DNA of 20,000 nt. It comes from an uncultured virus (IMG/VR IMGVR_UViG_3300025610_000020). Lineage: Duplodnaviria > Heunggongvirae > Uroviricota > Caudoviricetes. The position numbers and the translations under genes are program-made. The stretch lies in the IMG/VR virus record IMGVR_UViG_3300025610_000020; one strand, given 5' to 3'. Of the stretch, positions 1 through 14,995 are shown piece after piece. The notes under the pieces are model-generated. The model was given only the letters and a program-made list of their open reading frames with translations, did not search any database and was not told where the DNA came from. Position 1 is the stretch's first letter. The number at the start of each line of letters is the position of its first letter.

Positions 1-1547
1 AGTTCAAGTTGCTTTGGAGATGAATAGAAAACATAGTTACGATATGAATAGGCCATCCTCCAGATGTTACGCATACAATTTTCAAATTGACTGGTTTTGG
101 TGCGATTGCTGATGAAGTTCATCAGACAAAAATCTGGAGAGACTTGGACTAGTCCATTTTTGTACTCATAATGTTTTTTTGGATAAACTGGTTTATCATT
201 CTCATCATAAGTTATACGTTTCCAGTTATTAGTAAATGCATATACCTCAAAAGGAATATTTGTTTTTTTGCAGAACCAGATCAAATTGAACAACTGTTTT
301 ACAGTATCCAACATAATATCAGCCATTGATCCAGACCAATCTAGAACAAAGACGAGACCATGATTCTTACCATCTGCAAGAGTGGTTACTTTTTTAAATA
401 AATCTTCATTGTATTTGTAGGTATGAAGTTTGGTACAGTCAAGAACACCAGTTTTGGACACTGTTGCACGGGAATATGATTCAGCAGATTTTTTACACTC
501 AAACTCCTTTACAAGATAGTTTACCTCTTTTTGAGCAGACTTTTTATAAGACATATACGCTTTGTCTGCAGATGCAAAAATATTTTTATTTACCCGAGAA
601 TATGTTTTATCCACATCATCAGAAATTTTCTGCTGTTCAGCATATGACTCATTTGCATATTTGTGAATTTCAGTATAGTCAACAACGACTGTTTCGAGAT
701 TAACTTGTGGAAGCTCAATATAAACATTCTCGAAAGAATTTTTGTTGATTAGATCTTTGAGGTTTTCCTCAAAAGAACTTTCAGTATGAACTTTTGGTTC
801 CTCAGAATCAGATTGTTGACCTTCATAACTGGGAGTATCAAGATCAGCATCATCATTCACTTTTTCATCGGACTCACCAGTATCATCAGACTCTTCACCA
901 TTATCAGAATCATTTTCAACAAAATCTTGAGGTTCAGAACCCGAATTTGATTGACCATCGGTATTATTGATGTTATCAACTTTTTTCTTAGTATCCTGAT
1001 GTTCTTTACAGTATTTGTAAAGTACTTCTGCGGCTAAAAGTGCATCCGCAAAGGTTTCTGAGTCGGCAACCATATTGACAATATCCATCTCTTCACCACG
1101 TTCAATGGGAATATCAACGTAATTACCAATCTTGAACCACAGATTCAACCTATCAGCAAGATTGAATTCGGAGATGTCCTCATCTTCAAGAGAAAAGAAA
1201 TCATTATCAGATAGTTCACTATATCCCCTAAAGAAAGTCTTGGACAATCCAGGATATTTACGTTTCATCAGTTTTTCAATACGTGCATCCTCAACAACAT
1301 TGACAAACTGAGGAGGAATTTTATGGTTTTTTGACCAGTCTTCATCTGGAGTGAACAGTGCATGGCCAACTTCATGACCCACAAGAAGATCATAAACAAC
1401 ATTACTCGCTTTCTCCCACATAGGAAGAGTCAGAACGCGAGTATGAACATTGAAACAAGCGGTTTCAACATTCTTATGCTCCACGATCAAGTCTTCCGTG
1501 GCAAGCAGTTTTGCAAGTTGGGACTTGATTTCGTGTAGGACTGCCAT
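1..1547 (-). CDS. HExxH metallopeptidase-like / vWA (CobT-like) protein, conserved in T4-like cyanophages; 3' end truncated by the window edge
   Basis: Not in the ORF track; translated by hand from ATG at 1547: MAVLHEIKSQLAKLLATEDLIVEHKNVETACFNVHTRVLTLPMWEKASNVVYDLLVGHEVGHALFTP (HEVGH zinc motif). An acidic linker lies at ~780-960. The same frame gives GKNHGLVFVLDWSGSM (MIDAS DxSxS) at ~325-372 and is still open at position 1. Confidence 0.85.
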   Translation of the reverse strand, partial: MAVLHEIKSQLAKLLATEDLIVEHKNVETACFNVHTRVLTLPMWEKASNVVYDLLVGHEVGHALFTPDEDWSKNHKIPPQFVNVVEDARIEKLMKRKYPGLSKTFFRGYSELSDNDFFSLEDEDISEFNLADRLNLWFKIGNYVDIPIERGEEMDIVNMVADSETFADALLAAEVLYKYCKEHQDTKKKVDNINNTDGQSNSGSEPQDFVENDSDNGEESDDTGESDEKVNDDADLDTPSYEGQQSDSEEPKVHTESSFEENLKDLINKNSFENVYIELPQVNLETVVVDYTEIHKYANESYAEQQKISDDVDKTYSRVNKNIFASADKAYMSYKKSAQKEVNYLVKEFECKKSAESYSRATVSKTGVLDCTKLHTYKYNEDLFKKVTTLADGKNHGLVFVLDWSGSMADIMLDTVKQLFNLIWFCKKTNIPFEVYAFTNNWKRITYDENDKPVYPKKHYEYKNGLVQVSPDFCLMNFISNRTKTSQFENCMRNIWRMAYSYRNYVFYSSPKQLE

Positions 1548-1568
1548 AGGTCTGTTGCGTATGGGCCT

Positions 1569-1622
1569 ATTATACAAAAAAAGAGGGTCTTGCGACCCCC
1601 TAGTGGACAGTTTGAAAATTGG
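1569..1622 (-). promoter_or_regulatory. Putative early promoter of the peptidase/vWA gene
   Basis: Perfect -10 TATAAT (plus 1569-1574), 21 nt upstream of the ATG. No good -35, because that position falls in a hairpin. Upstream motif CCAATTTTCAAACTGTCCACT (1602-1622). Confidence 0.55.
1576..1600 (-). terminator. Rho-independent terminator
   Basis: Minus strand GGGGGTC-GCAA-GACCCTC followed by T7; GNRA tetraloop; just downstream of the stop at 1625. Confidence 0.85.
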
Positions 1623-1624
1623 CC

Positions 1625-1939
1625 TCAGTCTCTCTGCCGCCAATCATCTGGTTTGTCTTGTTTGAACCAATCAACGATTTCATCAGCACTATCAAATCCC
1701 GTTTTATAATTGGATGGGTCGGGATCTCCTAGCCCCATCCTATTCATAAAATCATCAATACTACCTTCTTCAATATCTCCAGCAGATTGTCTTCTTGCTT
1801 TTTTTAACATCTCTCGGGCAGATGTATTTGCCTTTGACAATTTCTCTGCCCATATCATATCTTCAAGTTTTACTTCTTCCCCATTCACAATACACTTGCA
1901 AATGAATTCGAGTCTCAATCGATATTGCGTAGACAGCAT
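1625..1939 (-). CDS. Conserved cyanophage hypothetical protein (104 aa)
   Basis: Likely start is MLSTQYRLRLEFICKCI at 1939, with GAGG SD-like sequence upstream, rather than 1957. Ends PDDWRQRD. Recalled as a cyanomyovirus gene found downstream of gp46. Confidence 0.75.
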   Translation of the reverse strand: MLSTQYRLRLEFICKCIVNGEEVKLEDMIWAEKLSKANTSAREMLKKARRQSAGDIEEGSIDDFMNRMGLGDPDPSNYKTGFDSADEIVDWFKQDKPDDWRQRD

Positions 1940-1960
1940 ATATATCCTCACTATCACTAG

Positions 1961-1968
1961 TATTTAGA
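1961..1968 (-). promoter_or_regulatory. Putative gp55-dependent late promoter (TCTAAATA)
   Basis: One mismatch to TATAAATA; overlaps the gp46 stop codon; about 20 nt upstream of the ATG at 1939. Confidence 0.5.
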
Positions 1969-3673
1969 CTATTCTACTGAATCCTTTTACTTTGTCAAAT
2001 TTGATGACATTTTCAAACTTATCATATAAACCATCTTTATGTGAAATTACAAAAACATTTGCATCTTTAATTACATATCGAATGATTTTCAAAAACTCTT
2101 CCGTACCAAAACCATCCAGAGAACTATCAAATACTTCATCCATAATGAGAAGATTTGTATTTACTGAATTTTTGGCCCTTGCTATTTCTCTCCAGGTAAA
2201 CAAAAGAGCCAAATCAATTCTCATTTTCTCACCCTCAGAAAAAGATTCATAAGAAAACTTTTCATGAATTGGTGATTGAACAGATTCGTTAAATTCTTCA
2301 TCAAGTTTAAAGTTGATGTAGAAATCCATCATCCTCAAATAGCGGTTTACTTGTTGATTGATGAGAGGCAAATACTTTTTAATAATCTGCCTCTTTACAC
2401 CACCATCTTTGAGAAGAGAAAACGCAAAGTCATAGTAACTTAACGACTCTTTGTGATCTGAGAGATCAGCATAAATTTTATCTAACTGATTTTGAAAGGA
2501 GACTAACTTGTCATGCTCAGTATTTCGGTTTTCAAGTTGATTGGCAATTGTTTGAATTTCAGATTCAAGTTGTTGTACCTGTCTCTGGAATCCAGATATA
2601 GTCGAATTGTTTTTAGAAATCTCATGATTGAGATTAACGATCTCCTTACTAATTGTTTTAAATTGCTGCTCTCGTAATTCTTCTTCTTTAATTGCTTGCT
2701 CTAGTTCTTTATAACCAGATTGCAACTCTTTTGCTTTAGATTGAGCAGCTTCAACTCTATTTAACCGAAACTCTTCTTCTATATCCTGTTCACATGTTGG
2801 GCAAACCGTATGCTCAGTAAAAAACTTGTGCTCTTTTGTGATGGTTGTAACTTTTTGAGAAATTTTTCCTTTTAAGTTTCCAAGTTTACGAAGTTTTTCT
2901 GATGCACTTTCAAGGCCAACAATCGTTGTTTGTAATTCATTCGTTTCTTCTAGAAGGTCCAGATTTTTTTCAGTGTAATTACCAACCTCATTCATAATAT
3001 TGGCAATGTTTTCTTTCTTGGCATTTATGTTGGCATTGCCACGATTTTCTAGTTCTTCTATAAACTCTTCTTGCATCTTGATTTTATCAATGATGCCTTC
3101 CTTCTTAACTTCAAGAATTTTTGTTTTTTCTCTAAAAATTTTAATCTTTTCTTTGATAAGGGAATTCATTGCCGAAAAGATCTTAATGTCAAGAAGATCT
3201 TCAATAACTTCCCTTCTATTACTACTTGAAAGTTGCATGAAGGGAACAAATGTCGATGATCCCAGAATTACAACCTGAGTGAATGATTTGTGATTCAGTT
3301 TGAGAATATTATCTTCTAGAATTCTTTGATTCGCTCTATCATCAGCTTCTTTATGGAGTTTATTTCCATTGACTTCAATATCAAAAACATTTGGTTTCAT
3401 TCCCCTACGAACGAAATAGTTTTTGTTACCAACCTTAAATTCAACTTCAACTAAACAGTTCTTTTCATTAACCGTATTGACAAGTTGTGGTTTATTAATT
3501 TTACGAAAAGGTTTATTAAATAATGCAAATGTTAGTGCATCCAGAAGTGTTGACTTTCCAGATCCATTTGATCCAATAATAATTGTATTATTAGATTCCG
3601 TAAAATTTATTTCGGTCCACTGATCACCAGTCGAAAGAAAGTTGCGCCACCTAATTTTCTTGAAGATTATCAT
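1964..3673 (-). CDS. gp46: Recombination endonuclease subunit gp46 (Rad50/SbcC-like ATPase)
   Basis: Walker A GSNGSGKS, coiled coils, zinc hook CPTC, signature FSEGE, Walker B LLIMDE, D-loop SSLD, H-loop ISH; downstream of gp47. Confidence 0.97.
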   Translation of the reverse strand: MIIFKKIRWRNFLSTGDQWTEINFTESNNTIIIGSNGSGKSTLLDALTFALFNKPFRKINKPQLVNTVNEKNCLVEVEFKVGNKNYFVRRGMKPNVFDIEVNGNKLHKEADDRANQRILEDNILKLNHKSFTQVVILGSSTFVPFMQLSSSNRREVIEDLLDIKIFSAMNSLIKEKIKIFREKTKILEVKKEGIIDKIKMQEEFIEELENRGNANINAKKENIANIMNEVGNYTEKNLDLLEETNELQTTIVGLESASEKLRKLGNLKGKISQKVTTITKEHKFFTEHTVCPTCEQDIEEEFRLNRVEAAQSKAKELQSGYKELEQAIKEEELREQQFKTISKEIVNLNHEISKNNSTISGFQRQVQQLESEIQTIANQLENRNTEHDKLVSFQNQLDKIYADLSDHKESLSYYDFAFSLLKDGGVKRQIIKKYLPLINQQVNRYLRMMDFYINFKLDEEFNESVQSPIHEKFSYESFSEGEKMRIDLALLFTWREIARAKNSVNTNLLIMDEVFDSSLDGFGTEEFLKIIRYVIKDANVFVISHKDGLYDKFENVIKFDKVKGFSRIV

Positions 3674-4139
3674 GAATGTAAGAAATCATATTACGAAGGA
3701 TTTGTGGATCTTCTCGCAGAAGTCCAAGAGAAGTATTACAAGCGCGACAAAGTAAAGATCTAACTTTGCCTGTTGTGTGATCGTGATCTACTTGAGGTGG
3801 AGACATCTCATAGCCACAGATTTTACACTTATTGTTCTGTTCCACCACCATAGCAGAAAACTCTTCGGTTGTCAAACCATATTTGGTTTTTAGTTTCCAC
3901 GATTTACGATATTCATAATTATTACAAGAGTTTTTTGATGCTCTCGCCCGCTTTTCCTCTGGAGAAAGTTTGTGATACTTCTTCAAAGATTTTTTGCTGT
4001 AGCATTCTTTACAGGAAGTTTTGTAGATGGTAGTGTTTCTCATGTATCCATCTTTTCCCATAGTTCCAGCTTTCTGGGCGATAGAATATTCGCTCACAGA
4101 TTTTTCAACTTTACAGGTCTTACAGATCTTAGTATCCAT
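3651..4139 (-). mobile_element. Free-standing Endonuclease VII-family (His-Me finger, F-CphI-like) putative homing endonuclease, 162 aa
   Basis: C-terminal KYGLT..EQNNKCKICG..VDHDHTTGKVRSLLCRACNTSLG matches the EndoVII motif. N-terminal CKTC...CKEC Zn finger. Interrupts the gp47-hypothetical-gp46 cluster and overlaps the gp46 start by 23 nt. Confidence 0.88.
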
Positions 4140-4142
4140 TAG

Positions 4143-4181
4143 CGTTGGAAGAACTATAACTATTTATAATTTTTTCCAACG
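4143..4181 (-). promoter_or_regulatory. Hairpin enclosing a perfect T4-type late promoter TATAAATA (4161-4168) upstream of the endonuclease
   Basis: Minus strand CGTTGGAA-AA-AATTATAA-ATAG-TTATAGTT-C-TTCCAACG. The outer 8-bp inverted repeat is perfect (4143-4150 / 4174-4181), and the inner stem is 8 bp with one G-U. The hairpin ends 3 nt before the ATG at 4139. Confidence 0.8.
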
Positions 4182-4202
4182 AATATTTTTAAAAAGAATC
4201 AT
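4164..4202 (-). pseudogene. Truncated 5' remnant of gene 46 (MILFKNIRWKKL*)
   Basis: ATG ATT CTT TTT AAA AAT ATT CGT TGG AAA AAA TTA TAA. 7 of the first 9 aa are identical to the gp46 N-terminus MIIFKKIRW. Starts 1 nt after the upstream gene's stop. Confidence 0.85.
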
Positions 4203-4203
4203 A

Positions 4204-4464
4204 TCAAATTACTGGGGGGACAACAAAATCATTTTTGGTAATAATAGCATAGTTCACTCCTTTGACAATACATGTTTTGATTGCAAGGTCTGGATCAATT
4301 TCTACAGCCTCAATCTCATCATAGTTGTTTTGAGTTTCTAACATCATAACATATCTTTCGGCATCATCCTCTTCTTCAAAGAGAAATAAAACTTTTTCCC
4401 GTTTTTTGTTGAAAACGGCATATGCACCTTCTTTAGTTTCTGATTTATGCACCAGCATGTACAT
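4204..4464 (-). CDS. Conserved hypothetical protein, resembling cyanobacterial DUF3110
   Basis: VLFLFEEEDDAERYVMMLE motif and C-terminal VVPP; abuts the gp47 stop; recalled as the usual gene between gp47 and gp46 in cyanomyoviruses. Confidence 0.7.
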   Translation of the reverse strand: MYMLVHKSETKEGAYAVFNKKREKVLFLFEEEDDAERYVMMLETQNNYDEIEAVEIDPDLAIKTCIVKGVNYAIITKNDFVVPPVI

Positions 4465-5514
4465 TTACTCAACCTCGCAAGCAGATGTGTATACTTTTTC
4501 TAGAATTGATTTTAATTTAGAAGTGTTTAAAGAACATTCAGATTCATCAACATATCTATTCAATATCGAAAGTGTGTTTTCAGATTCTTCGGTTTCAAAT
4601 TCTTCGGATTGGTAAAATCCATTGAAATCAAAGTTTTCAACAATTTTTAAATCATTCACACCAGCAGAGTATAATTTATCAATAAATTGATCAAACTGTT
4701 TTACATTTGACTTCTTGTTGACAATAACCTTTACAATTTTGTCTTTGTAAATATCAGTTTTAAATGTTTGGTGGGCTGTGTCTGAATATGGAACAACATA
4801 GAACAGTCGATGTGGATTATTAACTGGAGTGTGCTCTAGAGTTTCGGTATCAAAGATATGAAATCCTCTTGTTTCTTCAACATCATGCCAATAAATTTCA
4901 TATGGATTTCCAAGATAGTAAACATTATCTTGGAAGTTTCTATGATGATAATGTCCAGAAAAAACTTTTTCAAACTTTTTATAATCTGATTTATCTTCAC
5001 CATGCTCACAGATATAGGTTTTATTAGCATAAAACCCTCTCATTTCTAAATGTCCAAAAGCCACTTTTGCTTCGGTCCTGGAAATGAGATTAATTGTCTC
5101 TTGACGATTTTCATCGTTGATCCATGGAATAAAAAATGTTTTTAGATTTTCAAATTTAACTTCGGTAGGACTTCCATAAACAATAACGTTATCATACTCT
5201 CGCAATAGTAGATCAACAGAGTTAATGTTATTAGTGTCCTTGTAATACGCGGTATGATTTCCGACAATTGTATGCACAGTGACACCCATAGACTGGAGAC
5301 GATCATAGTAGTTCTTTTTAGCCCAATCAAGAGACCAAAAATCAATCCCCTTACGAGTGTCGAAAGTGTCTCCCATATCAACAACAGTTGTGATACCTTC
5401 TCTTTCGAGGGTTGGGAAGAAGATGTCGTCGTAGAATTTTTTGAAGTAGTCATGAAGATTCTTGTTTCCCTTTCTAGCTCCAAAATGCTGATCGGTAATG
5501 ATTGCGACTTTCAA
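4465..5514 (-). CDS. gp47: Recombination endonuclease subunit gp47 (Mre11/SbcD-like nuclease)
   Basis: Metallophosphoesterase motifs TDQHFG, GDTFD, VGNH, FGHLE, SGHYH; TTG start overlapping the upstream TGA. Confidence 0.96.
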   Translation of the reverse strand: MKVAIITDQHFGARKGNKNLHDYFKKFYDDIFFPTLEREGITTVVDMGDTFDTRKGIDFWSLDWAKKNYYDRLQSMGVTVHTIVGNHTAYYKDTNNINSVDLLLREYDNVIVYGSPTEVKFENLKTFFIPWINDENRQETINLISRTEAKVAFGHLEMRGFYANKTYICEHGEDKSDYKKFEKVFSGHYHHRNFQDNVYYLGNPYEIYWHDVEETRGFHIFDTETLEHTPVNNPHRLFYVVPYSDTAHQTFKTDIYKDKIVKVIVNKKSNVKQFDQFIDKLYSAGVNDLKIVENFDFNGFYQSEEFETEESENTLSILNRYVDESECSLNTSKLKSILEKVYTSACEVE

Positions 5515-5771
5515 AGTTTCCCTCCAACAACTCCACTATTAACAACTCTTGTATACAAATGTAAGGTTCCTTCTTGTTCACACTTGAGATGCCATCGTGT
5601 GATATCAGTGACTTCTTTTTCTGTTAAGGCAAAGAGAAAATCTTTTCCAGTATCTTTACGAACACTCTTCCACATAAAACGAGTTTGTTCTACTCGAAAG
5701 GAATCATCAATCCATTCGTAGTTCTCTTCTTCGCGGAGGCGAGCTTCATCCAGCATTTCTTCGTGGGTCAT
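5511..5771 (-). CDS. Hypothetical protein (86 aa)
   Basis: 4-nt overlaps with gp55 (ATGA) and gp47 (TTGA) suggest translational coupling; ends SGVVGGKL. Confidence 0.75.
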   Translation of the reverse strand: MTHEEMLDEARLREEENYEWIDDSFRVEQTRFMWKSVRKDTGKDFLFALTEKEVTDITRWHLKCEQEGTLHLYTRVVNSGVVGGKL

Positions 5772-6274
5772 CGGTTCATTTTTGTCTGAATGTTTTCTTT
5801 GATCGTATTATAGTCTGAACTGGTGCGAGAAAGCAAGCTATCGTCAACAGCCATAACTTCTGCAAATCCAGACTTCTCAATAATACGATTTTTGATCTCA
5901 AGTTGCTTCTTTTCTTTACCAATTCTTCTCAAGAAAGCAAAGTAGATAATCTGAGTAAAATATGCAAATGGATTAGAACTTTTCTCTGGATCAAAGTTTG
6001 TAACATATTCAATACAATTTTCAAGCCCGTCCGAAATCATGTCTTCTTTGAACATATAGTTGACAAAATTTGGTTTGTGGGATAAATGATCACCAATCTT
6101 TTTAAAACAGGTGCCAAGATATTCGTGAGTTTTCCTAAACTCTCTTGATTCTCTCAATAAATCTGACTTTGTTTTTCCTTCTTTTTCAGCTTGCTTAAGG
6201 AATTTTTTGTATTTGTTGATCTCCGCAAGGAACTCTTTATTGTTAACATAATGTTCTGGTTTCTTTTTAGTCAT
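5768..6274 (-). CDS. gp55: Late transcription sigma factor gp55
   Basis: HYVNNKEFL, KPNFVNYMFKEDMISDGLENC, NFDPEKSSNPFAYFTQIIYFAFLRRI motifs; usual position between uvsW and gp47. Confidence 0.96.
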   Translation of the reverse strand: MTKKKPEHYVNNKEFLAEINKYKKFLKQAEKEGKTKSDLLRESREFRKTHEYLGTCFKKIGDHLSHKPNFVNYMFKEDMISDGLENCIEYVTNFDPEKSSNPFAYFTQIIYFAFLRRIGKEKKQLEIKNRIIEKSGFAEVMAVDDSLLSRTSSDYNTIKENIQTKMNR

Positions 6275-6298
6275 TATTTTATTTTATCTGTTGATAAC

Positions 6299-6327
6299 AT
6301 TATATCATACAAAACAAAGCTTGACAA
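6299..6327 (-). promoter_or_regulatory. Sigma70-type promoter for the gp55-gp47-gp46 operon
   Basis: Minus strand TTGTCA, 17-nt spacer, TATAAT with an extended -10 TGn. Confidence 0.8.
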
Positions 6328-6349
6328 GGTATCCAAAATCAAGTAGACT
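6321..6349 (+). promoter_or_regulatory. Sigma70-type promoter pointing antisense into the uvsW operon
   Basis: Plus strand TTGACA (6321-6326), 17-nt spacer, TAGACT (6344-6349). Confidence 0.55.
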
Positions 6350-6374
6350 CTGGCTTGTCCAGGATGAAAAGAAA

Positions 6375-6830
6375 TTATAGCTCTTTATGATTATCTTTAA
6401 TATCTATTTTAAAAAGTTTCTCTAGATTCTTTTTTGTTTCTGATACAGATCCTAGGAAACCCATATTTTTAGTTACATCTCTTTGATTTTTAGAATCATT
6501 ATCTTCATCATCATAGTCATTCAAATATTCATGTTTTGAGTCATTGAAGTTTTTATATAATTCTATCAATTCAATATCATCAATTTCACTCATGGTGATT
6601 ACATTTGACAATCTTATAAAAAAGATATCATCATTACATAATTTCATCCAAGGCTCAATTTTTAATTCAGTATAACTTCCTTGGACATTGTATTTTAAAA
6701 TGACTGGATCTTGTAGAATAATAATAGGATCTTCTTGATCACTATCATCAACCATGATTAAAGAAACAATTTCTTCACCAGAAACTAGTTTCAATGTGCA
6801 ATAAAATTCTTGTTCTAAGTCTGAATTCAT
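6375..6830 (-). CDS. Conserved hypothetical protein downstream of uvsW (possibly Sm-like fold)
   Basis: EFYCTLKLVSGEEIVSL and EPWMK, C-terminal MGFLGSV..LEKLF; recalled as a cyanomyovirus core gene at this position; 1-nt overlap with the uvsW stop. Confidence 0.75.
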   Translation of the reverse strand: MNSDLEQEFYCTLKLVSGEEIVSLIMVDDSDQEDPIIILQDPVILKYNVQGSYTELKIEPWMKLCNDDIFFIRLSNVITMSEIDDIELIELYKNFNDSKHEYLNDYDDEDNDSKNQRDVTKNMGFLGSVSETKKNLEKLFKIDIKDNHKEL

Positions 6831-8293
6831 TATTGATTTAAAGCAACGTTTATAATCTCATAATTAAAATTTTCTTCCTTATAAATTTTTAGTCTTTCAA
6901 CTAAATGATTGAGAGTGTAATTTCTTTTTTTGTTAAATGTGATATCATCCGCAATATCAAAAAGAGTGGCCTTCAATTTTTTTTCACTTTTTCTGAGGAC
7001 TCTACCAATACTTTGCAGGTTTCGGACTCTTGACTTGGAGGGAGAGGCAAAGATAACATTATGAAGATTCCTGATGTTAATCCCAGTAGAAAAAGTTCCA
7101 TAAGATGCGACGATGATTGCGTTTTCTTCGGTTTCGGTTATTTTGCGAATTCTTTCTCTATCTTCTGTATCTACTCCACCATAAACAAAGAAAACTTTTC
7201 TGTTATTTTTTACCGAATTATTTATCAATTCATATAATGGTTCTCCATGAGTTTCCACTCTTGTAAAAAGAATCAAAGTATTTCCTTTTTGAATCAAGGC
7301 TAAATTTTTAATAAATTTATTCCTTTGAGGGTTTTCGCAAAGATATCGAATTTCCTCTTGATAACTATCAAAGATTCTTGGTTTATGTTGTAGTCTAATA
7401 ATTTTTACATCAAGATCTGATAAGTGTTTCTCTTTGATCAACTCTTTTGTTTTAATTGTTGAATATGATGGGCCAAACAAACCCTCCAGAATCCACTTGT
7501 GAGTTTGACTTCCATCAAGTGTTCCCGTAAATCCAAATCTATATTTTGCATCAGCAAGTTTCGTCATGATGCTGACTAAAGATTTAGATTTAAATAGGTG
7601 TGCTTCATCACCAACTACAACTTCAAATCGTTCAAAGTATTTTCTGTCGAGTTTGTAGATGGATTGCCAAGTGGTGATAATAACCTGATTATCAGTTTCT
7701 CTTTCCTTACCACCATAGATCTTGTGGCAGTATGATCCAACATCCCAACCATAATCCGCAAAGTCCTTGTACATCTGTTCTACAAGAGATGTGGTTGGAA
7801 CAATAATTAAAGTATCTTTTCCCCTTTCAACATAGTATCTTACCACGGAGTAAATCATGAGAGATTTACCTGAGCCTGTCGGTGATACTATAAGTCGTCG
7901 ATTACACTTCAGTGCATCATAGACTGCTTGTACTTGATAATCCCTGGGTTTATGTGCAGAGATCTTTGTCATATAATCTTTGACTCCCTCATAGGAGATC
8001 ATTTGATTTAGATCAATCGGATGGCCATAGTATTTGTTATCTTGAAACTCATACTTGTATCCATGATCATCACAAAATCTTAGGAGTTTGTCTAATAGAC
8101 CAATATAAATTTCTCCAGTCTGAATATTGAATAATCTGATCTTTCCGTCCCACCATCTGTTTCGATATTGTGGCATATATTTTGCACCCTCAACATCAAA
8201 CGTAAACTGATCGGATAGTTCGTGTTTGATGTGAGGCTCAGTTTTGATTCTTAGATATACTTCATTCTTTTTGGAAATGATCAGATCACTCAT
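6830..8293 (-). CDS. uvsW: UvsW RNA-DNA/DNA helicase (SF2)
   Basis: PRDYQ Q-motif, SPTGSGKS, DEAH, TGT, QSIGRVLR; follows uvsY. Confidence 0.97.
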   Translation of the reverse strand: MSDLIISKKNEVYLRIKTEPHIKHELSDQFTFDVEGAKYMPQYRNRWWDGKIRLFNIQTGEIYIGLLDKLLRFCDDHGYKYEFQDNKYYGHPIDLNQMISYEGVKDYMTKISAHKPRDYQVQAVYDALKCNRRLIVSPTGSGKSLMIYSVVRYYVERGKDTLIIVPTTSLVEQMYKDFADYGWDVGSYCHKIYGGKERETDNQVIITTWQSIYKLDRKYFERFEVVVGDEAHLFKSKSLVSIMTKLADAKYRFGFTGTLDGSQTHKWILEGLFGPSYSTIKTKELIKEKHLSDLDVKIIRLQHKPRIFDSYQEEIRYLCENPQRNKFIKNLALIQKGNTLILFTRVETHGEPLYELINNSVKNNRKVFFVYGGVDTEDRERIRKITETEENAIIVASYGTFSTGINIRNLHNVIFASPSKSRVRNLQSIGRVLRKSEKKLKATLFDIADDITFNKKRNYTLNHLVERLKIYKEENFNYEIINVALNQ

Positions 8294-8296
8294 ACA

Positions 8297-8725
8297 TTAC
8301 ATTCCTGATGTAAATTTCAACCAATCGATGGCGTTCTTTATTATATATCCACGATTTGAGAGTGATTTTATGATTTCCTCCAGATAGCGAAGCATAATAT
8401 CGTAATATTTAATCTTGAGATCTACTTTAGAAAGTCTCTCATCGGCACTCATATGCCTCTGTATGCTCTCTTTTTCCCTCACCTTATAGGGAAATGGTTC
8501 ATCCTCGTAGACCGCAGGATCTGCCTTTCCTGTGTAGTAGTTGTAACGCTCAAGATATACCTTATCGTAGGTCTCTTTAGCTCTTTCTCTTAGCAGTAAA
8601 GTTGTGTTGTAAATTTCATAATATTTTGCATGAAGTTGTGGAGTCTTGAGTGATTCGTTCGCTAGATCATCTCTGTCTATCTCAGAATCACGATCCCACA
8701 TCTTCTGAATATCTTCAAGATTCAT
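8297..8725 (-). CDS. uvsY: UvsY recombination mediator
   Basis: 142 aa, ESLKTPQLHAKY, C-terminal RGYIIKNAIDW; synteny gp3-uvsY-uvsW. Confidence 0.9.
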   Translation of the reverse strand: MNLEDIQKMWDRDSEIDRDDLANESLKTPQLHAKYYEIYNTTLLLRERAKETYDKVYLERYNYYTGKADPAVYEDEPFPYKVREKESIQRHMSADERLSKVDLKIKYYDIMLRYLEEIIKSLSNRGYIIKNAIDWLKFTSGM

Positions 8726-9270
8726 AAATTAGTTCCGAACAAATTAGTTACTTCGTATATACTATACTTGAAAACAGCCTGTGCTGTAAAGAACTCTTCA
8801 CTTTGAAGTTTACTATCAAAGTCAAGTCCACTTAGACTGACTGGAAATAAATCCCTAAAAGTAATTTTAAAATTAGGCCTAAGATTACTACTCAATACAA
8901 TGAGTGATCCATCAGAGAACTGTTCCTGATACTTATCGGTAATTCCTTCATTGTCTGTTGTTAGATCTTCAAACTGTTGAGGTGTCTTTGGGAATCCTAA
9001 ACCAGTCAACCAGTTGTGTACAGCCATATAGTTTTCAAAATTTTCATCCACAAGAAATGACATCGTAAAGTCTGAATACTGGAGTTTTTCTCCAGGAACA
9101 TCTAGATTTTTAAGGTACGATGGTTGAACAGCTGTTCCTAGTGATATTTCTGGAATATTGGCCGTTTGACAAAAGAAGTTGATCTTCGGGTTTTTATTAA
9201 TCGTAAATTCAAATCCAGTAGGACTTAAAAAATTCCTGTTCTGGATTTGATTTCTATATGGGGACGCCAT
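8722..9270 (-). CDS. gp3: Tail completion / tube terminator protein gp3
   Basis: NRNFLSPTGF, FFCQTANIPEISLG, FLVDENFENY, FPVSLSGLDFD; tube-like family, downstream of gp23. Confidence 0.9.
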   Translation of the reverse strand: MASPYRNQIQNRNFLSPTGFEFTINKNPKINFFCQTANIPEISLGTAVQPSYLKNLDVPGEKLQYSDFTMSFLVDENFENYMAVHNWLTGLGFPKTPQQFEDLTTDNEGITDKYQEQFSDGSLIVLSSNLRPNFKITFRDLFPVSLSGLDFDSKLQSEEFFTAQAVFKYSIYEVTNLFGTNL

Positions 9271-9279
9271 TTTTATTTT

Positions 9280-9287
9280 TATTTAGA
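9280..9287 (-). promoter_or_regulatory. Putative late promoter (TCTAAATA) for gp3
   Basis: Lies right after the terminator T-tract, 9 nt before the gp3 ATG. Confidence 0.6.
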
Positions 9288-9288
9288 T

Positions 9289-9312
9289 AAAAAAAGAGGG
9301 TCCGAAGACCCT
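9289..9312 (-). terminator. Rho-independent terminator with cUUCGg tetraloop
   Basis: Minus strand AGGGTC-TTCG-GACCCT-C-T7; overlaps the stop of the 90-aa ORF. Confidence 0.9.
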
Positions 9313-9583
9313 ACTGAACACGTTCACACATATAACCATGTGTTAAACCCCTTTTTGCTTTGTATGTTTTATACTTAATACCATACTTAGAAAGAGTTTT
9401 AGTTGGGACGGTTGGACGACCTTTCTCAGATGCAACTTCTTCATAAGAACGCTCAATGAAAAAGCCACTACCAACGGGAATGGATTTGTCTAACCAAGGA
9501 TATTTGAGACCAGTTGAACCACCCCTTTGACCAAGAGGAGTAACACTATTTGCTGTGCAGATGGTGTAGTTTGTTGACGCCAT
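9311..9583 (-). CDS. Hypothetical basic 90-aa protein (moron-like)
   Basis: Has its own sigma70 promoter and terminator; K/R-rich C-terminal half; KYPWLDKSIPVGSGFFI motif. Confidence 0.75.
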   Translation of the reverse strand: MASTNYTICTANSVTPLGQRGGSTGLKYPWLDKSIPVGSGFFIERSYEEVASEKGRPTVPTKTLSKYGIKYKTYKAKRGLTHGYMCERVQ

Positions 9584-9611
9584 GATGAATAGAACGTTTG
9601 ACTATGTTTAC

Positions 9612-9640
9612 ATATTAGACGACTAAGGAAAAAATGTCAA
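9612..9640 (-). promoter_or_regulatory. Sigma70-type promoter for the 90-aa ORF
   Basis: Minus strand TTGACA (9635-9640), 17-nt spacer, TAATAT (9612-9617). Confidence 0.75.
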
Positions 9641-9644
9641 CCAT

Positions 9645-9669
9645 AAAAAAAGGGGACCTTTCGGTCCCC
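9645..9669 (-). terminator. gp23 terminator
   Basis: GGGGACC-GAAA-GGTCCCC-T7; perfect 7-bp stem with GNRA loop; 27 nt after the gp23 stop. Confidence 0.92.
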
Positions 9670-9696
9670 GTTGAATATATCCCGCTTGGGCAAGAA

Positions 9697-11121
9697 TCAC
9701 ATGAGGTTCTTGACGGAAACGCGACGATAGTAGCGGTTGGTGCCAGCCTTGATAGCGCCAAGAGCGGCGTCGGTTCCTTCAGCGAAGGGATTAGCGACCA
9801 TGCCGTAGCGGGTCTTGAATCCGATCTTGGGCTGGAAGGTGTCCTGACCAACGGCACGTACCATCTGGAGGGGTACGTAGGGGCAGTAGAATAGACCAGC
9901 GTCATAGGGGGAAGCACCCTTATAACCAACGACGTAGTACTGAAGAGCACTGTTGTTGGAAGCGAAGGGGTCAATATACACGCGATACTTACCATTGATA
10001 GTACCAGCAAAGGTGTTGCCAGTGTCATCAACGTTAAGGTTAGCGTTGAGGGCGGGGGTGTAATCAAGTACACCAGCCATGGTTAGAGCAGAAGCAACAT
10101 CAGCGGAAGTTAGGATGATGTTACCCTTTCCACGACGAGTTCTCTGGGCGATCTGGTTAGCATCGCGCTCGATCTGGAATAGTAGACCCTTGAACTTCTC
10201 AACAGACCAACGACCGTTAGAGTCGATGTCTAGGTCAAACTGACCAGCGGTAGCAGTGTTGAGTTGAGCACCAGCCTCAGCAGACTTATAGATGGTTCTG
10301 ATAACTTCGCGGTTGATCTCAGCCATGATCTCTGTGGAGAGAATGTTGGCGAGTTCAGCCTCGGCGTTTAGACCATGGATTGCCTTGAGGTCTTGTGCTA
10401 GTTCTAGGGAGTACTCAGCCTTGAGTGCTCTGGACTTAGCGGTTACGGTGACTTTCTCGATTGAGAAGGCCATCTGGTTGAAGTCAGTTCCGCTCTCGCC
10501 TAGGGCCTCAGAGTCGGTAACTGCCATACCCTGACCTACGCTGTAGGTGCTAGGAGCAGCATTAGGATCGAGAACGCCAGGATTGGAACCACGCTGTAGG
10601 GTAGTACCGAAACCAACGCTACCACCGCTGTCAGAACCACCAGTGTAGTCACCCTGAGTAGCAGAGTAACCAGAGTTCTGAGCAGAGAATGCAGAATCGG
10701 GCTCGTTGAATAGAGCTTCGTCTCCATTCATGTTGTTGTACTTAGAACGCATCGCGAAGATGAGTCCAGTGGGTCCGTTCATGGGCTGAACGCCAGCGAG
10801 GTCATAAGCGACCAAGTTGGGCATAGAGCGACGGATGAGGCTGATTAGTACGGGATCGAAACCGCCAGTGGGAGCGCCACTGTCAGTCTGACCAGAACCA
10901 CGATAGTATGCACCACCACCAGTGGAGAATGAGTTAGTGGGGGTAGCTTCTTGAAGGTCGAAACCGCCTTCAGCGAAAGAACGCTCTTCACTGAGGAAAC
11001 GCTCTTGGTTCTCTAGAAGTTGGGCTGTGACAGCACGACGGTGGTTGTCTTTGATAGACTCGCAACCTTCATAGTCTAGAAGGGGAGCCCACTTCTCTAG
11101 GAGTTGGGGATTGTTATACAT
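9697..11121 (-). CDS. gp23: Major capsid protein gp23
   Basis: LLEKWAPLL, FDPVLISLIRRSMPNLVAYDLAGVQPMNGPTGLIFAMR, KSRALKAEYSLELAQDLKAIHG, FQPKIGFKTRYG. Confidence 0.99.
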   Translation of the reverse strand: MYNNPQLLEKWAPLLDYEGCESIKDNHRRAVTAQLLENQERFLSEERSFAEGGFDLQEATPTNSFSTGGGAYYRGSGQTDSGAPTGGFDPVLISLIRRSMPNLVAYDLAGVQPMNGPTGLIFAMRSKYNNMNGDEALFNEPDSAFSAQNSGYSATQGDYTGGSDSGGSVGFGTTLQRGSNPGVLDPNAAPSTYSVGQGMAVTDSEALGESGTDFNQMAFSIEKVTVTAKSRALKAEYSLELAQDLKAIHGLNAEAELANILSTEIMAEINREVIRTIYKSAEAGAQLNTATAGQFDLDIDSNGRWSVEKFKGLLFQIERDANQIAQRTRRGKGNIILTSADVASALTMAGVLDYTPALNANLNVDDTGNTFAGTINGKYRVYIDPFASNNSALQYYVVGYKGASPYDAGLFYCPYVPLQMVRAVGQDTFQPKIGFKTRYGMVANPFAEGTDAALGAIKAGTNRYYRRVSVKNLM

Positions 11122-11169
11122 TTTACTTTGGTAAGTTTAAGGTTTTATGAAAATAATTTAGGTTAACGA

Positions 11170-12126
11170 TCACTTAATTCTTGAAAGTGTCTGTAGGTAA
11201 CGAGACATTGAACCAGAAACATCTGGGCCAGCATCTACACCTTCAGAAAGGGTTTCGGTAGTTTCACCTTTTGTATCAGCGGGGAAATATGATTCCCTTA
11301 GAGTCGCTAACTTATCACGGTAAGATTCTTCACCCTCAAACTCAACACCTTCTGCTAGAGAAGCGAGTTTCTCCTTCTGAGTTAGTGCTAGACCTTCAGA
11401 AACCTGAGCGAAGATACCTTCAGCGGTGGTTTCTCCAAGTCTGCGATTCAGTTGGATATTTCTCTCGATTTGCTCGTTGAGCTTGGTTTCCATGTCATCA
11501 AGTTTTTCTACCATATTCTCAACAACATCATATTTATCGTCAGGGATGGATACATAATGATCTTCAAATAGACCCTTCATTCCTTGGAGGAATGATTCGG
11601 TCATTTCAGTCTTCAGACCGTGCTCGATCTGAAGTGCATTCTCTTCGATCCACTCTTGAGCAACGTACTCAAGATATGAATCAATCTTTTCCGCTAGATC
11701 AGCTTTAATACCTTCTAGCTCTTCGGCAATAGTTGCCTCATAGTTTTCTTGGATTTGAGCCTTGACTTCTTCTACGCGAGCGTGAAGAGCAGCCTCAAAT
11801 ACGGTTCTTGCTTTTTCTTGGAACTCTTCGGAGAGTTCTTCACCAGCAAAGAGAGCAGCAACGTCTTCATCAACGTTGACTTCTTCGATGGTGGTTTCTT
11901 CTGATTCTACTTCTTCTTTCTTGGTAGCACCCTGAGCAGTGGGCATAGGGGCTCTTCCTAGCGAAGCACCAGGATCTTTTAGTTTAGCGGAATCGTCGTC
12001 GGGTCTGTAGTTCTCGGGGGTAGGACCACCGAGATCTTCGATTTGAGCACCGCCAGCAACCATAGGTTCGCCTGCAGCTGCGCCTTTTTTCACGACGTTA
12101 TCCATTTCTTGTAAATTAGCGGACAT
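11170..12126 (-). CDS. gp22: Prohead core scaffold protein gp22
   Basis: Acidic coiled-coil protein; DLGGPTPENYRPDDDSAKL, ELSEEFQEKARTVFEAA, YLEYVAQEW; between gp21 and gp23. Confidence 0.95.
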   Translation of the reverse strand: MSANLQEMDNVVKKGAAAGEPMVAGGAQIEDLGGPTPENYRPDDDSAKLKDPGASLGRAPMPTAQGATKKEEVESEETTIEEVNVDEDVAALFAGEELSEEFQEKARTVFEAALHARVEEVKAQIQENYEATIAEELEGIKADLAEKIDSYLEYVAQEWIEENALQIEHGLKTEMTESFLQGMKGLFEDHYVSIPDDKYDVVENMVEKLDDMETKLNEQIERNIQLNRRLGETTAEGIFAQVSEGLALTQKEKLASLAEGVEFEGEESYRDKLATLRESYFPADTKGETTETLSEGVDAGPDVSGSMSRYLQTLSRIK

Positions 12127-12171
12127 TTGGGAACTCTCCGAAAATAGATCTATATTGTTGAAATCTATACT

Positions 12172-12179
12172 TATTTATA
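12172..12179 (-). promoter_or_regulatory. Late promoter TATAAATA upstream of gp22
   Basis: Exact T4 late consensus in the gp21-gp22 intergenic region. Confidence 0.8.
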
Positions 12180-12181
12180 AA

Positions 12182-12832
12182 TTATAGATTTGATAGGAAG
12201 TTTTGGAATAAGTTTAACTTATTCTCTTCTAGTCTTTTTTGATCAACCATGGTGTTGATCTGCTTGTATGTTTTTTCTGCAAGTCTTTCGCGGAGAATGC
12301 CGCCATCCCAAACCCACTCTTTTCCTTCCATGATGCCATTAACAAATGCATCAGGAGCTGAGGGATCTGCTACAATATCAGCAGCAGTTGCTAGAGAGAA
12401 ATCGTCATTAACCATACTATAACCTTCTCTAGTTGGAGAAAGTGTTCCAACACCACGAGAAGATACGCCAAGTTTTACACCATCATTAAGGAGAGCTTCG
12501 GCAATCTTACCCATGGGGGTTGAAAGGATTTTAGCCTTTCCAATAAAGTTGTTACCCTCTCTTTGGAGTGAAACAATTTTATGGGAAACTCTATCAAGAT
12601 TAATGGAAGGTCCATCGGGATGGCCTAGTTCTCCCAGAGCACGACCCTTAGAAACAAAACTTTCATTATAACGCTTTACTTCTCTATCAAGAAGATTGCA
12701 GTCATACATTCTTCTGTTTCTATTGGGGATGTTTCCCTGAAGGAAAACTCCTTCAATATAGAGATGTTTTTGACCGTTGCGTTGCTCAACGATAATCTCT
12801 ACCTGTTCGATCTCTTCTCTGATGAGTTTCAT
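12182..12832 (-). CDS. gp21: Prohead protease gp21
   Basis: ALGELGHP (His), LGVSSRG (Ser), DIVADPSAPDA (Asp). Confidence 0.97.
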   Translation of the reverse strand: MKLIREEIEQVEIIVEQRNGQKHLYIEGVFLQGNIPNRNRRMYDCNLLDREVKRYNESFVSKGRALGELGHPDGPSINLDRVSHKIVSLQREGNNFIGKAKILSTPMGKIAEALLNDGVKLGVSSRGVGTLSPTREGYSMVNDDFSLATAADIVADPSAPDAFVNGIMEGKEWVWDGGILRERLAEKTYKQINTMVDQKRLEENKLNLFQNFLSNL

Positions 12833-12836
12833 TTTT

Positions 12837-13103
12837 TTATACGGTAAATCCTACTTTGGTTGCTTTTACATCGGTAGATCCTGCTAAGATCATATCCTTA
12901 TGCTTCTTTTCAATATATTCAACAGTACCAGTTGGCATAGTCATAGAACCAATACCCTGATAATTTTCATCTAATATGGTAATCAACTGATCACCTGCAT
13001 TGCTATTATATAAACGTACTACTGTAGCAGCTCCAATGCTAGAAGCACCACCAACACTAGTAGGACAATTTTCCTGTGGTCCAAGGACAAGTGATCTTGC
13101 CAT
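12837..13103 (-). CDS. Conserved hypothetical protein, probably virion or prohead-associated
   Basis: 88 aa, ATVVRLYN...KVGFT; in the head cluster between gp20 and gp21. Confidence 0.75.
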   Translation of the reverse strand: MARSLVLGPQENCPTSVGGASSIGAATVVRLYNSNAGDQLITILDENYQGIGSMTMPTGTVEYIEKKHKDMILAGSTDVKATKVGFTV

Positions 13104-13270
13104 TATTCTTCTCCAGAATCTTCGATTTCATCTCCAAATAATGATGCTGCAGCATATGGACGAAGAGCATCAATTTTTTCTGCAGCCTTGCCATAAAGAG
13201 CATCTTTAATATTATCACTAATCTCAGATGCACTTGCATCAGAAAAAATTAAATCAACAATATTTTCCAT
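13103..13270 (-). CDS. Small acidic prohead-region protein (55 aa; positional analogue of T4 gp67)
   Basis: Not in the ORF track; hand translation MENIVDLIFSDASASEISDNIKDALYGKAAEKIDALRPYAAASLFGDEIEDSGEE*. TAATG overlap with the next gene; late-promoter motif upstream. Confidence 0.8.
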   Translation of the reverse strand: MENIVDLIFSDASASEISDNIKDALYGKAAEKIDALRPYAAASLFGDEIEDSGEE

Positions 13271-13296
13271 GAAAAGGTTATGAACTAACTAGAAAG

Positions 13297-13304
13297 TATT
13301 TATT
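13297..13304 (-). promoter_or_regulatory. Putative late promoter (AATAAATA)
   Basis: NATAAATA motif just after the gp20 stop. Confidence 0.6.
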
Positions 13305-13307
13305 CTC

Positions 13308-14960
13308 TTAGATTTCTCCACCTTTCATATCTGCCTGTGTAGGCCCAGCATCAATCTCCTCATCTTGCGGAACTTCACCCATCATATTTGGGTCTTCTGG
13401 AATGGGATTTCCAAATTCATCTACTGGTGCATTGGGATCGGGGAGAATTCCTTTCTCAATTTCATCCTGAATTTGCTCATCAATTTCAATGATTTCTTCA
13501 TCAGTTTGGCGAAGAACTTTTCTACGGAGATATTCGACAGAGTAATACTTACCAAGATAAGGTTCTGCGAGTTGAGCTAATCCAAGTCTCCCTTCAAGAA
13601 GTTCTTTCTCCTTAAGTTCTGCAAAATGATTATCATACATATAATCAAATTGAATGTGCTCCTCAAGCATCTTCCAATCTTGAGGGGTGCAAATATTTTT
13701 AAGAAGACACTGAGTTTTCAGCATATCAATAAACATATTGCTGAAACGCTTTCTAAGGCGACCAACAAATTTGGAGAACTTAAGTTCGTCTCTTAGAATC
13801 TCAGAAGAACGGCCAAGATTGAATCCACCCTCAGCTGCAATTCTTGATTCTGGAACTCCTAGTGATCTGTATAATTTCTTCTGGAAATACTGAACATCAC
13901 TCAGTTCGCCAAGATTTTGTCCACCAGGAAGTGTGGAGATTTCAGTTCCTCTACCACCTTCACGTCTTGGTAGCCAGAAATCTTCTAGCATAGACATGTA
14001 TTTCTTATCATCACGAACTTCTCCAGTGGAAGCATCATAGGTAAGTTTATTTCTATACCTATTCATTACATCACGAAGATATTGCTCAGCTTTAATCTTA
14101 GGTAGATTGCCTACGTCAATGTAAAAAATTCTACGCTCAGGAGCTCTTGATAGTCTGTAGATAACTAGGGAGTCCTCAATCATACGAAGTTGATTGAGTG
14201 ATTTGATTGCCTTATGAAGATATGATAGAACTACACCTTTATTTCTATCTACTAGTCCAGAAGTGCAATATGTGATTGCATCTTTGGCAAACTTAATTCC
14301 TTTTGTTCCAGAATATTTACTACCAACACCACCAGCATAGGTTGGTCTTGGTGTATACATGAAGTATTCTTCAATTTCAGGGAACTGAACAACCTCATTT
14401 GGATTTGCTCCATTTGGTTGTCTGAATATTGCATTACCTTCTTGTTTTTTCTTTTCTTCACGAACATATCTCATCTTGAGAGGATCAATATATCTTAACT
14501 CTTTGATCCCTTCATGTGGATTTTTGATGTCAATTACTTTATGATAATAAAGTCTTCCATCAACATACCAGTTTCTAAAGATCTCATGTGACTTCGCATC
14601 AAAGTTTAGAAGATCTTTTATATTTTTAAATTCTTCTCTAATTCTCTTTTTGATGCCATCACTAGCTGGGAGATTATCAAGGTTAATAGTAACGGGAGTA
14701 TCATTAAGATCACTAACAATTGCCTCATTTACAACATCTTCGATGGCAGTATCCGCTTCGGGATGAAGAGCCATTTCACGATATCTTTTTACAAGTTCAA
14801 ACTCTGATTTATATACTCCTTCTAAGTCAAGGTATTGGCCATAAAAATTACTAGCAATATAATGGTCAACCCCGTCCTCATTATTTTGAGGAACGGGGGA
14901 CACTATAGTTTTAGATTTTTTCTCGCTATCTTCAATTGAGAATCCAAACAGTCTCGCCAT
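13308..14960 (-). CDS. gp20: Portal vertex protein gp20
   Basis: MARLFGFSI, FRNWYVDGR, LRMIEDSLVIYRLSRAPERRIFYIDVGNLPK, EDFWLPRREGGRGTEI. Confidence 0.99.
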   Translation of the reverse strand: MARLFGFSIEDSEKKSKTIVSPVPQNNEDGVDHYIASNFYGQYLDLEGVYKSEFELVKRYREMALHPEADTAIEDVVNEAIVSDLNDTPVTINLDNLPASDGIKKRIREEFKNIKDLLNFDAKSHEIFRNWYVDGRLYYHKVIDIKNPHEGIKELRYIDPLKMRYVREEKKKQEGNAIFRQPNGANPNEVVQFPEIEEYFMYTPRPTYAGGVGSKYSGTKGIKFAKDAITYCTSGLVDRNKGVVLSYLHKAIKSLNQLRMIEDSLVIYRLSRAPERRIFYIDVGNLPKIKAEQYLRDVMNRYRNKLTYDASTGEVRDDKKYMSMLEDFWLPRREGGRGTEISTLPGGQNLGELSDVQYFQKKLYRSLGVPESRIAAEGGFNLGRSSEILRDELKFSKFVGRLRKRFSNMFIDMLKTQCLLKNICTPQDWKMLEEHIQFDYMYDNHFAELKEKELLEGRLGLAQLAEPYLGKYYSVEYLRRKVLRQTDEEIIEIDEQIQDEIEKGILPDPNAPVDEFGNPIPEDPNMMGEVPQDEEIDAGPTQADMKGGEI

Positions 14961-14987
14961 GTTATAAAGTGACTACGTTAATAAGAT

Positions 14988-14995
14988 TATTTATG
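14988..14995 (-). promoter_or_regulatory. Putative late promoter (CATAAATA) upstream of gp20
   Basis: NATAAATA motif in the gp19-gp20 spacer. Confidence 0.65.

Follow-up and report, generated by a model that had tools for sequence, protein, structure and literature searches.

How can a gene for a free-standing homing endonuclease stand inside the coding sequence of a phage recombination gene when no intron or intein removes it from the product? The question is raised by gene 46 in the IMG/VR record IMGVR_UViG_3300025610_000020, a 20,000-nucleotide (nt) stretch of a T4-like cyanomyovirus, referred to here as the window, in which all genes of the gene 46 region lie on the minus strand. At this locus a 12-codon remnant of gene 46 (the stub) is followed by an open reading frame (ORF) of the EndoVII family, and a complete gene 46 begins within the last codons of the endonuclease. 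These parts had been reported in an initial annotation of the window, together with the agreement of seven of the first nine residues between the stub and gp46 N-termini and four codon differences (ATT/ATA, TTT/TTC, AAA/AAG and CGT/AGG), and all of them were present as claimed.

Comparison with related loci made the anatomy of the locus plain and revealed a near-isogenic empty site, the boundaries of the inserted unit, its presence amid very different flanks and a conserved hairpin. In our judgement, window positions 3642-4181 very probably constitute a mobile homing-endonuclease cassette that inserted after about base 29-32 of gene 46 and operates by the mechanism set out below. Read from its 5' end, the cassette comprises a gene-46-derived segment of 8-11 nt forming the 5' arm of a predicted hairpin, a late-promoter motif in the loop, the 3' arm, the endonuclease gene and bases 1-32 of a foreign gene 46. 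The foreign copy joins the resident gene at base 33, which would give full-length gp46 without splicing, and the first 29 bases of the resident gene remain upstream as the stub. A search of 3300-4700 against the Rfam families gave no match at an expectation value (E) up to 1, hence no group I intron; gp46 is a single continuous open frame, and the endonuclease is a separate ORF that lies within neither an intron nor an intein. The earlier proposal of an invasion inside gene 46 without an intron is borne out by these results.

The empty site and the extent of the mobile unit

The nearest virus record to the window, G001, is endonuclease-free and, like the window, is a metagenome assembly. The two differ at 6 positions in 15,827 nt over window 4174-20000 (99.96% identity) and at 2 positions in 3,643 nt over window 1-3643 (99.95%), and the 530 bases of window 3644-4173 are represented in G001 by one single base, with the sole nearby mismatch at 3641. 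The uninterrupted gene 46 of G001 begins one base past the stop codon of the small DUF3110 ORF. Its start is identical to the stub at 29/29 bases (33/35), a likeness far beyond chance, and its first 33 bases match the working gene 46 start of the window at 21/33. Identity returns from base 34 on, so that alignment with an endonuclease-free relative located the end of the divergent tract, as had been anticipated.

A second contig, L028, has an empty junction like that of G001, and the stub equals its gene 46 start over 29/29 nt. Occupied junctions with an identical enzyme were found in L008 and L009, and contigs of the public runs X1 and X17 also carry occupied junctions. The locus displays a presence/absence polymorphism at a fixed site, occupied in the window, L008 and L009 and empty in G001 and L028, in genomes otherwise 99.95% identical.

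The extent of the unit was read from L108, a metagenome contig in which the N-terminal 200 residues of gp46 are 56% identical to those of the window, the DUF3110 protein 40% and the endonuclease 78%. In the gp47 and DUF3110 flanks, nucleotide identity between L108 and the window is about 55%; it rises to 74/80 over 4193-4104 (the leader and first codons of the enzyme), drops to about 64% over 4103-3894 (the N-terminal domain of the enzyme), reaches 233/240 over 3893-3654 (the nuclease domain and the gene 46 start) and returns past about 3641 to the flank level, about 45-65% per 30-nt bin. The highly similar stretch begins near 4181-4193 and stops near 3642. Both contigs have the same first 32 bases of gene 46 (32/32) despite 56% identity in gp46, which argues that the replacement start travels with the endonuclease. 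Since the replacement 5' end is also the sole tract differing from the near-isogenic empty genome, the suggestion of the initial annotation that it belongs to the mobile unit is upheld.

A 612-nt contig from an RNA library (marine metatranscriptome, run X21) is about 91% identical to the window, only across 3663-4181; upstream of 4181 it diverges from the window and is L108-like, and it represents a third cassette variant. This assembled contig, which reveals no transcript 5' end, suggests that a related cassette is transcribed. Judged by these comparisons, the cassette spans about 4181 to 3642, with edges that share 8-11 bases with the native gene on the left (stub codons 8-10) and two to three bases on the right. 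The endonuclease gene is itself a mosaic. Between the window and L108, synonymous divergence (dS) is 2.9 for residues 1-80 and 0.059 for residues 81-162, and the leader is about 93% identical. The contrast in dS between the halves points to a recombinant gene in which the N-terminal domain was swapped, and the mosaic suggests domain swapping inside the cassette; the swapped zinc-binding N-terminal domain presumably recognises DNA.

Table 1. Features of the gene 46 locus and copies of the promoter core in the window.
Feature	Position	Strand	Basis or remark
gp47, SbcD-like recombination nuclease subunit, upstream neighbour	4465..5514	-	homologous to annotated gp47 of S-T4, Sf-CH5, P-SSM2 and S-CAM9
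DUF3110 small ORF	4204..4464	-	Pfam PF11360, E 1.2e-11; stop TGA at 4206-4204
Stub MILFKNIRWKKL*, displaced native gene 46 5' end, 12 codons plus TAA	4164..4202	-	starts 1 base past DUF3110 stop; bases 1-29 (4202-4174) equal gene 46 start of G001 and L028
Putative mobile cassette: hairpin, promoter, endonuclease gene, replacement gene 46 bases 1-32	3642..4181	-	comparison with G001, L108 and RNA-library contig
Predicted hairpin 5' arm CGTTGGAA, stub codons 8-10	4174..4181	-	pairs with 4143-4150 in minimum-energy fold
TATAAATA, T4-type late-promoter motif in predicted hairpin loop	4161..4168	-	22 nt upstream of endonuclease ATG
Predicted hairpin 3' arm TTCCAACG	4143..4150	-	ends 3 nt before endonuclease ATG; homologous stem covaries in 12 relatives
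Free-standing EndoVII-family (beta-beta-alpha-Me) endonuclease gene, 162 amino acids	3651..4139	-	Pfam PF02945; begins 24 bases past stub
Replacement (foreign) gene 46 codons 1-11	3641..3673	-	21/33 bases equal G001 native allele; 32/32 equal L108
Overlap of endonuclease last 7 codons and stop with gene 46 codons 1-8	3651..3673	-	23 nt, different frame
gp46, SbcC/Rad50-like ATPase, complete, 569 amino acids	1964..3673	-	Pfam AAA_23 residues 6-229, SMC_N residues 5-561
ATAAATA copies	4161-4167, 12172-12178, 13297-13303, 14988-14994, 17829-17835; also 7219, 11531	coding strand	motif scan

The DUF3110 ORF normally abuts or overlaps the gene 46 start (Table 1). The stub runs from an ATG at 4202 to a TAA at 4164, and this stop codon sits within the promoter motif. 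As the Pfam matches of gp46 begin at residue 6 (AAA_23) and residue 5 (SMC_N), the first strand of the gp46 ATPase head is encoded by the replaced codons. The Pfam Metallophos_2 match of gp47 is weak, with an E of 0.0064 that falls under the cut-off. The stub and the endonuclease ORF share a frame, with 63 nt from ATG to ATG and a single TAA between them, probably by chance, since the frames differ in L110. In L003 (S-SKS1), an additional 55-codon hypothetical ORF lies at 724-891, between gp47 and the DUF3110 homologue.

Related loci and the replacement start

A search with the enzyme returned 6 IMG/VR loci (53-100% identity) and 19 metagenome loci (45-78%), 25 in total, with 18 distinct sequences including that of the window. 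At all 25 the enzyme stands at the junction of DUF3110 and gene 46, so the arrangement of stub, endonuclease and gp46 that the initial annotation proposed to look for elsewhere recurs at every related locus. The gp46 start was located by tblastn in 24 of the 25, the L121 contig stopping 31 bases into gene 46, and it lies inside the enzyme ORF by 14 bases at most loci and by 23 or 32 bases at others. In the 14-base form, the stop codon of the enzyme is a TAA made by gene 46 codons 4-5; in the window these codons are TTC AAG, and the endonuclease ORF therefore continues to a TAG.

Stub remnants are present at all related loci and have decayed to varying degrees. The stub is complete in L110 and the window, shortened in L011, L013 and L108, and without an ATG in L010 and L113; its 5' part is decayed or deleted in many relatives (L010, L108, L113 and L123). 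In L112, stub bases 1-22 match L084, the closest endonuclease-free relative (gp46 body identity 0.89), at 19/22, and the stub shares the FHKI codons of L084 (TTTCACAAGATTA), while the rebuilt start of L112 is of the FKKL type. Because it matches the closest empty relative, unlike the rebuilt start, the L112 stub is a second stub of native type.

Among 321 phage records matching the locus, none covers the insert, and in S-T4, Sf-CH5, P-SSM2 and S-CAM9 gp46 lies directly behind or overlaps the DUF3110 homologue. A sample of 80 IMG/VR gp46 loci gave 79 with a readable start, and neither endonuclease nor stub was found in any of these (0/79); relatives that lack the enzyme carry no stub, as the initial annotation had required. 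DUF3110 stands directly upstream in 77 of the readable loci, one has no upstream sequence and one (L068) has a different insert. The sample was ranked by similarity to the window gp46 and did not return L008 and L009, so it gives no frequency estimate. The insert of L068 (684-1214) is a 176-amino-acid ORF between DUF3110 and gp46 that overlaps both, with a weak match to 2OG-Fe(II) oxygenases (E 3.7e-4, under the cut-off); judging from this insert, the DUF3110-gp46 junction seems prone to insertion in general.

More distant EndoVII-family genes were surveyed at 35 loci, 24 of them evaluable. A stub was found in two, which are one contig (L020/L143), the rest being mostly intergenic (4-nt overlap). 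In L020 (1384-2030, the same as L143), a 167-amino-acid EndoVII-family gene (Pfam E 4.4e-22) stands at the start of a nicotinamide phosphoribosyltransferase (NAMPT) gene. Its 14-codon stub, MKVLPILNSDNLLK*, and the rebuilt start, MRVLPILNADSYK..., agree at 26/34 nt (z-score 6.0 against shuffles), and TATAAAT-like motifs precede the endonuclease ATG.

The initial annotation had held that the start at 3673 was recoded for cleavage resistance and that the stub would lie closer to orthologous gene 46 starts. The second expectation stood for the nearest relatives (29/29 in G001) and failed for gene 46 starts at large. Measured over 78 distinct endonuclease-free starts, stub and rebuilt tract lay at the same distance, with a mean of 20.4/29 matching bases each; the stub was closer in 32, the rebuilt tract in 35, and 11 were ties. 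AGG, TTC AAG or ATC occur at the same codons in natural endonuclease-free gene 46 alleles. Recoding for cleavage resistance is thus not supported, the rebuilt tract falling within natural allele variety. When cassettes were paired with their closest empty relatives, which was possible for 14 of 17 (L124 was without a partner of sufficient length), the rebuilt tract agreed with the relative at 20-24 of 33 bases in the 14 cassettes. From these alignments, the rebuilt tract is best described as a foreign allele of natural type, constrained by double coding with the C-terminus of the endonuclease, and not as a designed recoding.

The endonuclease and its leader

The endonuclease matches Pfam Endonuclease_7 (PF02945) over residues 82-156, scoring 75.9 bits (cut-off 23.6; E 2.3e-21). 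Its residues 4-155 share 34.8% identity with F-CphI of S-PM2 (E 1e-14), and phmmer showed resemblance in sequence to T4 EndoVII and Hpy99I. The predicted structure has a predicted local distance difference test score (pLDDT) of 85.6. Foldseek matched it to Hpy99I (E 1.9e-6) and T4 EndoVII (E 3e-3), at low template modelling scores (TM-scores, 0.27-0.31), one domain alone aligning. D118, H119, H121, N135 and eight Cys are invariant in the 18 sequences, four of the Cys lying in the nuclease domain (C105, C108, C131 and C134) and four in the N-terminal domain. From the family, we take D118, H119, H121 and N135 to be the catalytic residues and C105, C108, C131 and C134 to be the Zn positions. The ratio of nonsynonymous to synonymous substitution (dN/dS) was 0.08-0.37 in 12 pairs of endonuclease genes; the enzyme is intact and under constraint.

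Newly described here is a putative late-promoter motif within a predicted hairpin that covers the start of the endonuclease, the 5' arm being drawn from stub codons 8-10. The exact motif TATAAATA was found in 17 of the 18 distinct cassettes. Its core, ATAAATA, occurs in 7 copies in the window, all on the coding strand, and five of these lie 15-46 nt upstream of gene starts, preceding the endonuclease, the gp22 scaffold, the small ORF after the portal gene, the gp20 portal and the gp18 sheath. This placement fits late-promoter use in this phage.

The leader hairpin of the window is the minimum-energy fold (-13.2 kcal/mol, z -3.70), and in 8 of 14 folded leaders the homologous hairpin likewise has the lowest energy, with z no higher than -2.9. 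RNAalifold returned no consensus structure for the full set of 18 leaders. In the MAFFT alignment, which was anchored at the promoter motif, the window and L108 stems lay two columns off register; pairs were counted on the 12 leaders in register, and the others were folded singly. In the 12, 93.6% of cells were paired and 5 of 13 pairs had compensatory changes. The covariation score of the hairpin was 0.29 versus 0.16 for shuffles, a value reached by 0/500 shuffles, and slid controls paired at most 57.7%. The window/L108 and L124-L126 groups have very different arm sequences with pairing preserved.

The stub arm beside the promoter is the only part of the stub retained in nearly all cassettes. 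Since one half of the presumed homing site itself adjoins the promoter, it may be conjectured, by analogy with characterised enzymes, that the endonuclease represses its own gene through a stub-derived operator.

The proposed mechanism would run as follows. The enzyme would cut endonuclease-free gene 46 near codon 10, and repair of the break would copy the cassette, the stub providing homology on the left and gene 46 from base 33 onwards providing it on the right. Owing to its differences from the native left half-site, 12 in 33 bases, the rebuilt allele would not be cut. Read-through early transcripts would bury the endonuclease start in the hairpin, and late transcripts starting from the loop would be translated, as for I-TevI, segB and mobE. 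Finally, a start codon of an essential gene that lies within the endonuclease ORF would hinder loss of the element.

Several observations weigh against this account. The rebuilt tract is indistinguishable from natural alleles, which bears on immunity based on sequence. Of the full motif TATAAATA, the window holds 2 copies where 1.27 are expected, which is no enrichment, and 5 of the 14 folded leaders (L011, L125, L126, L123 and L112) have a weak hairpin or none. No Shine-Dalgarno sequence is visible at the endonuclease start, so what the hairpin hides can only be inferred. The window and G001 have identical flanks, which hold no co-conversion tract that would mark a homing event, and among contigs of three DNA runs none joins across the cassette, so that coexistence of both alleles within a sample was unseen.

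Alternative explanations and related systems

An unlikely alternative is that the nuclease is domesticated and has ceased to be an active homing element, being kept for phage use, for example in junction resolution or repair with gp46 and gp47, or as a regulator, the stub and duplicated start being the relic of a single ancient insertion. Each of the 18 distinct copies is intact and the dN/dS values are the low ones given above, whereas a selfish gene would ordinarily be expected to decay once fixed; the gene has a late promoter like the structural genes, adjoins recombination genes and belongs to an old lineage whose enzymes diverge to 45% identity at one site. However, of two genomes that are 99.95% identical one has the enzyme and the other does not, and the insert is in 0/321 matching phage records and 0/79 readable gp46 loci. 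The identical cassette ends amid flanks of about 55% identity also need horizontal movement.

A second proposal, which we consider similarly doubtful, is that the stub is a neutral scar, that the inverted repeat around the promoter motif arose by chance and that immunity comes from splitting of the target rather than from the rebuilt sequence. Homing introns and inteins ordinarily gain their immunity by splitting the target, and both the decay or deletion of the 5' part of the stub in L010, L108, L113 and L123 and the natural character of the rebuilt tract are in keeping with this proposal. It does not account for the compensatory changes in 5 of 13 stem pairs, which beat all 500 shuffles, or for the retention of the promoter-side stub arm in nearly all cassettes. 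In addition, the complete gene 46 5' region is regenerated and the target is not merely split, so that only sequence differences in the left half would be able to protect the rebuilt allele.

It is very improbable that G001 and L028 are deletion derivatives, from which recombination of the stub with the rebuilt start removed an ancestral cassette. As 33-nt direct repeats of 21/33 identity, these two tracts could recombine in principle. Since the G001 gene 46 differs from both of them at bases 28-33, G001 is no simple recombinant deletion product of the window form. S-T4, Sf-CH5, P-SSM2 and S-CAM9 have the plain DUF3110-gp46 junction, as do 77 of the 79 readable loci, and the 79-locus survey suggested that endonuclease-free genomes are basal and diverse. 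An assembly artefact, or a local tandem duplication unrelated to the endonuclease, is scarcely credible: metagenome assemblies, the source of both the window and G001, can be chimeric, but both junctions recur in independent contigs (occupied in L008, L009, X1 and X17, empty in G001 and L028) and the architecture is found in 17 further distinct cassettes.

With insertion of a mobile cassette as the preferred reading, a wider proposal is offered tentatively, as a possibility that we rate below even. An EndoVII-type lineage dedicated to gene 46 codon 10 may have persisted to 45% protein identity by capturing the start codon of its target, so that the start would be both immunity determinant and hostage, since deletion of the endonuclease would destroy an essential gene. 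The native start might be reused as a hairpin arm and perhaps as an operator, and swaps of the N-terminal domain might retarget the enzyme to new gene 46 alleles.

The nearest counterpart among known systems is found in the mobile endonuclease ORFs (mORFs) of fungal mitochondria (Allomyces macrogynus atp6; Glomus atp6, atp9, cox2 and nad3), which create gene hybrids: they insert with a foreign C-terminus, and the native C-terminus is left as a remnant that matches a sister species (PMC3630166). As in mORFs, a free-standing endonuclease lies inside a coding gene with a foreign duplicate of the displaced end, the native remnant matches a close relative better, and no intron or intein is involved. 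In contrast to mORFs, which replace the C-terminus and often overlap in frame, the N-terminus and start codon are replaced here and the overlap is out of frame. The enzyme is of the EndoVII type instead of LAGLIDADG or GIY-YIG, and the host is a phage, with a late promoter and a putative translational hairpin. Judged by its arrangement, the cassette appears to work like a mORF without being a member of that group.

In the nrdA gene of Aeromonas phage Aeh1, interrupted by mobE, and in fractured genes from ocean metagenomes, the element supplies an upstream stop and a downstream start (PMC2677866, PMC2988022), and the invading endonuclease elements in fractured genes overlap by 6-69 base pairs (PMC2677866). 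The cassette resembles these in that a free-standing endonuclease invades coding sequence and gives a stop and an overlapping start, with TATAAATA within a hairpin upstream. It differs in the outcome: there, two functional pieces or rejoining by a split intein are described, whereas here a useless 12-codon stub is left and a duplicated 11-codon tract completes the gene. F-CphI is of the same family and two-domain length and is likewise free-standing in a T4-like cyanophage; it adjoins psbA and targets the insertion site of the psbA intron (PMC10448857, PMC3037559). Unlike the cassette enzyme, F-CphI is not inside its target gene, and there is no rebuilding.

Homing endonucleases of T4 and Aeh1 are controlled by a late promoter and a hairpin, read-through transcripts hiding the initiation region and late ones being translated, and at the late promoter of its own gene I-TevI binds an operator that is similar to its homing site (PMC2988022). 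The leader described here is comparable to those of I-TevI and segB in that the late promoter is placed so that late transcripts would lack the inhibitory 5' arm of the hairpin, and in that a homing-site-like sequence stands beside the promoter. It is unlike them in the origin of the 5' arm and the homing-site-like sequence, both of which are nothing other than the half of the target gene that was displaced.

No description of an endonuclease cassette that replaces an N-terminus in phage was found in the literature searched, most subscription journals lying outside it. Free-standing homing endonucleases of phages have been described as intergenic or as breaking genes into pieces. The gene 46 cassette would represent a third solution in phage, in which the element enters an essential gene and brings along a substitute for the N-terminus that it displaces, and the locus mirrors, at the N-terminus, what fungal mitochondrial mORFs do to C-termini. 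With an occupied and an empty genome that are near-isogenic, exact substrates are at hand for study of the cut site, of immunity through 12 bases and of lock-in by the start overlap. For annotation, it matters that a 12-codon stub and an overlapping start are readily mis-called. The finding also bears on the spread of recombination modules among marine and freshwater cyanophages. If the same design holds true at the NAMPT gene of L020, it would constitute a general, so far undescribed route for phage endonucleases into coding sequence.

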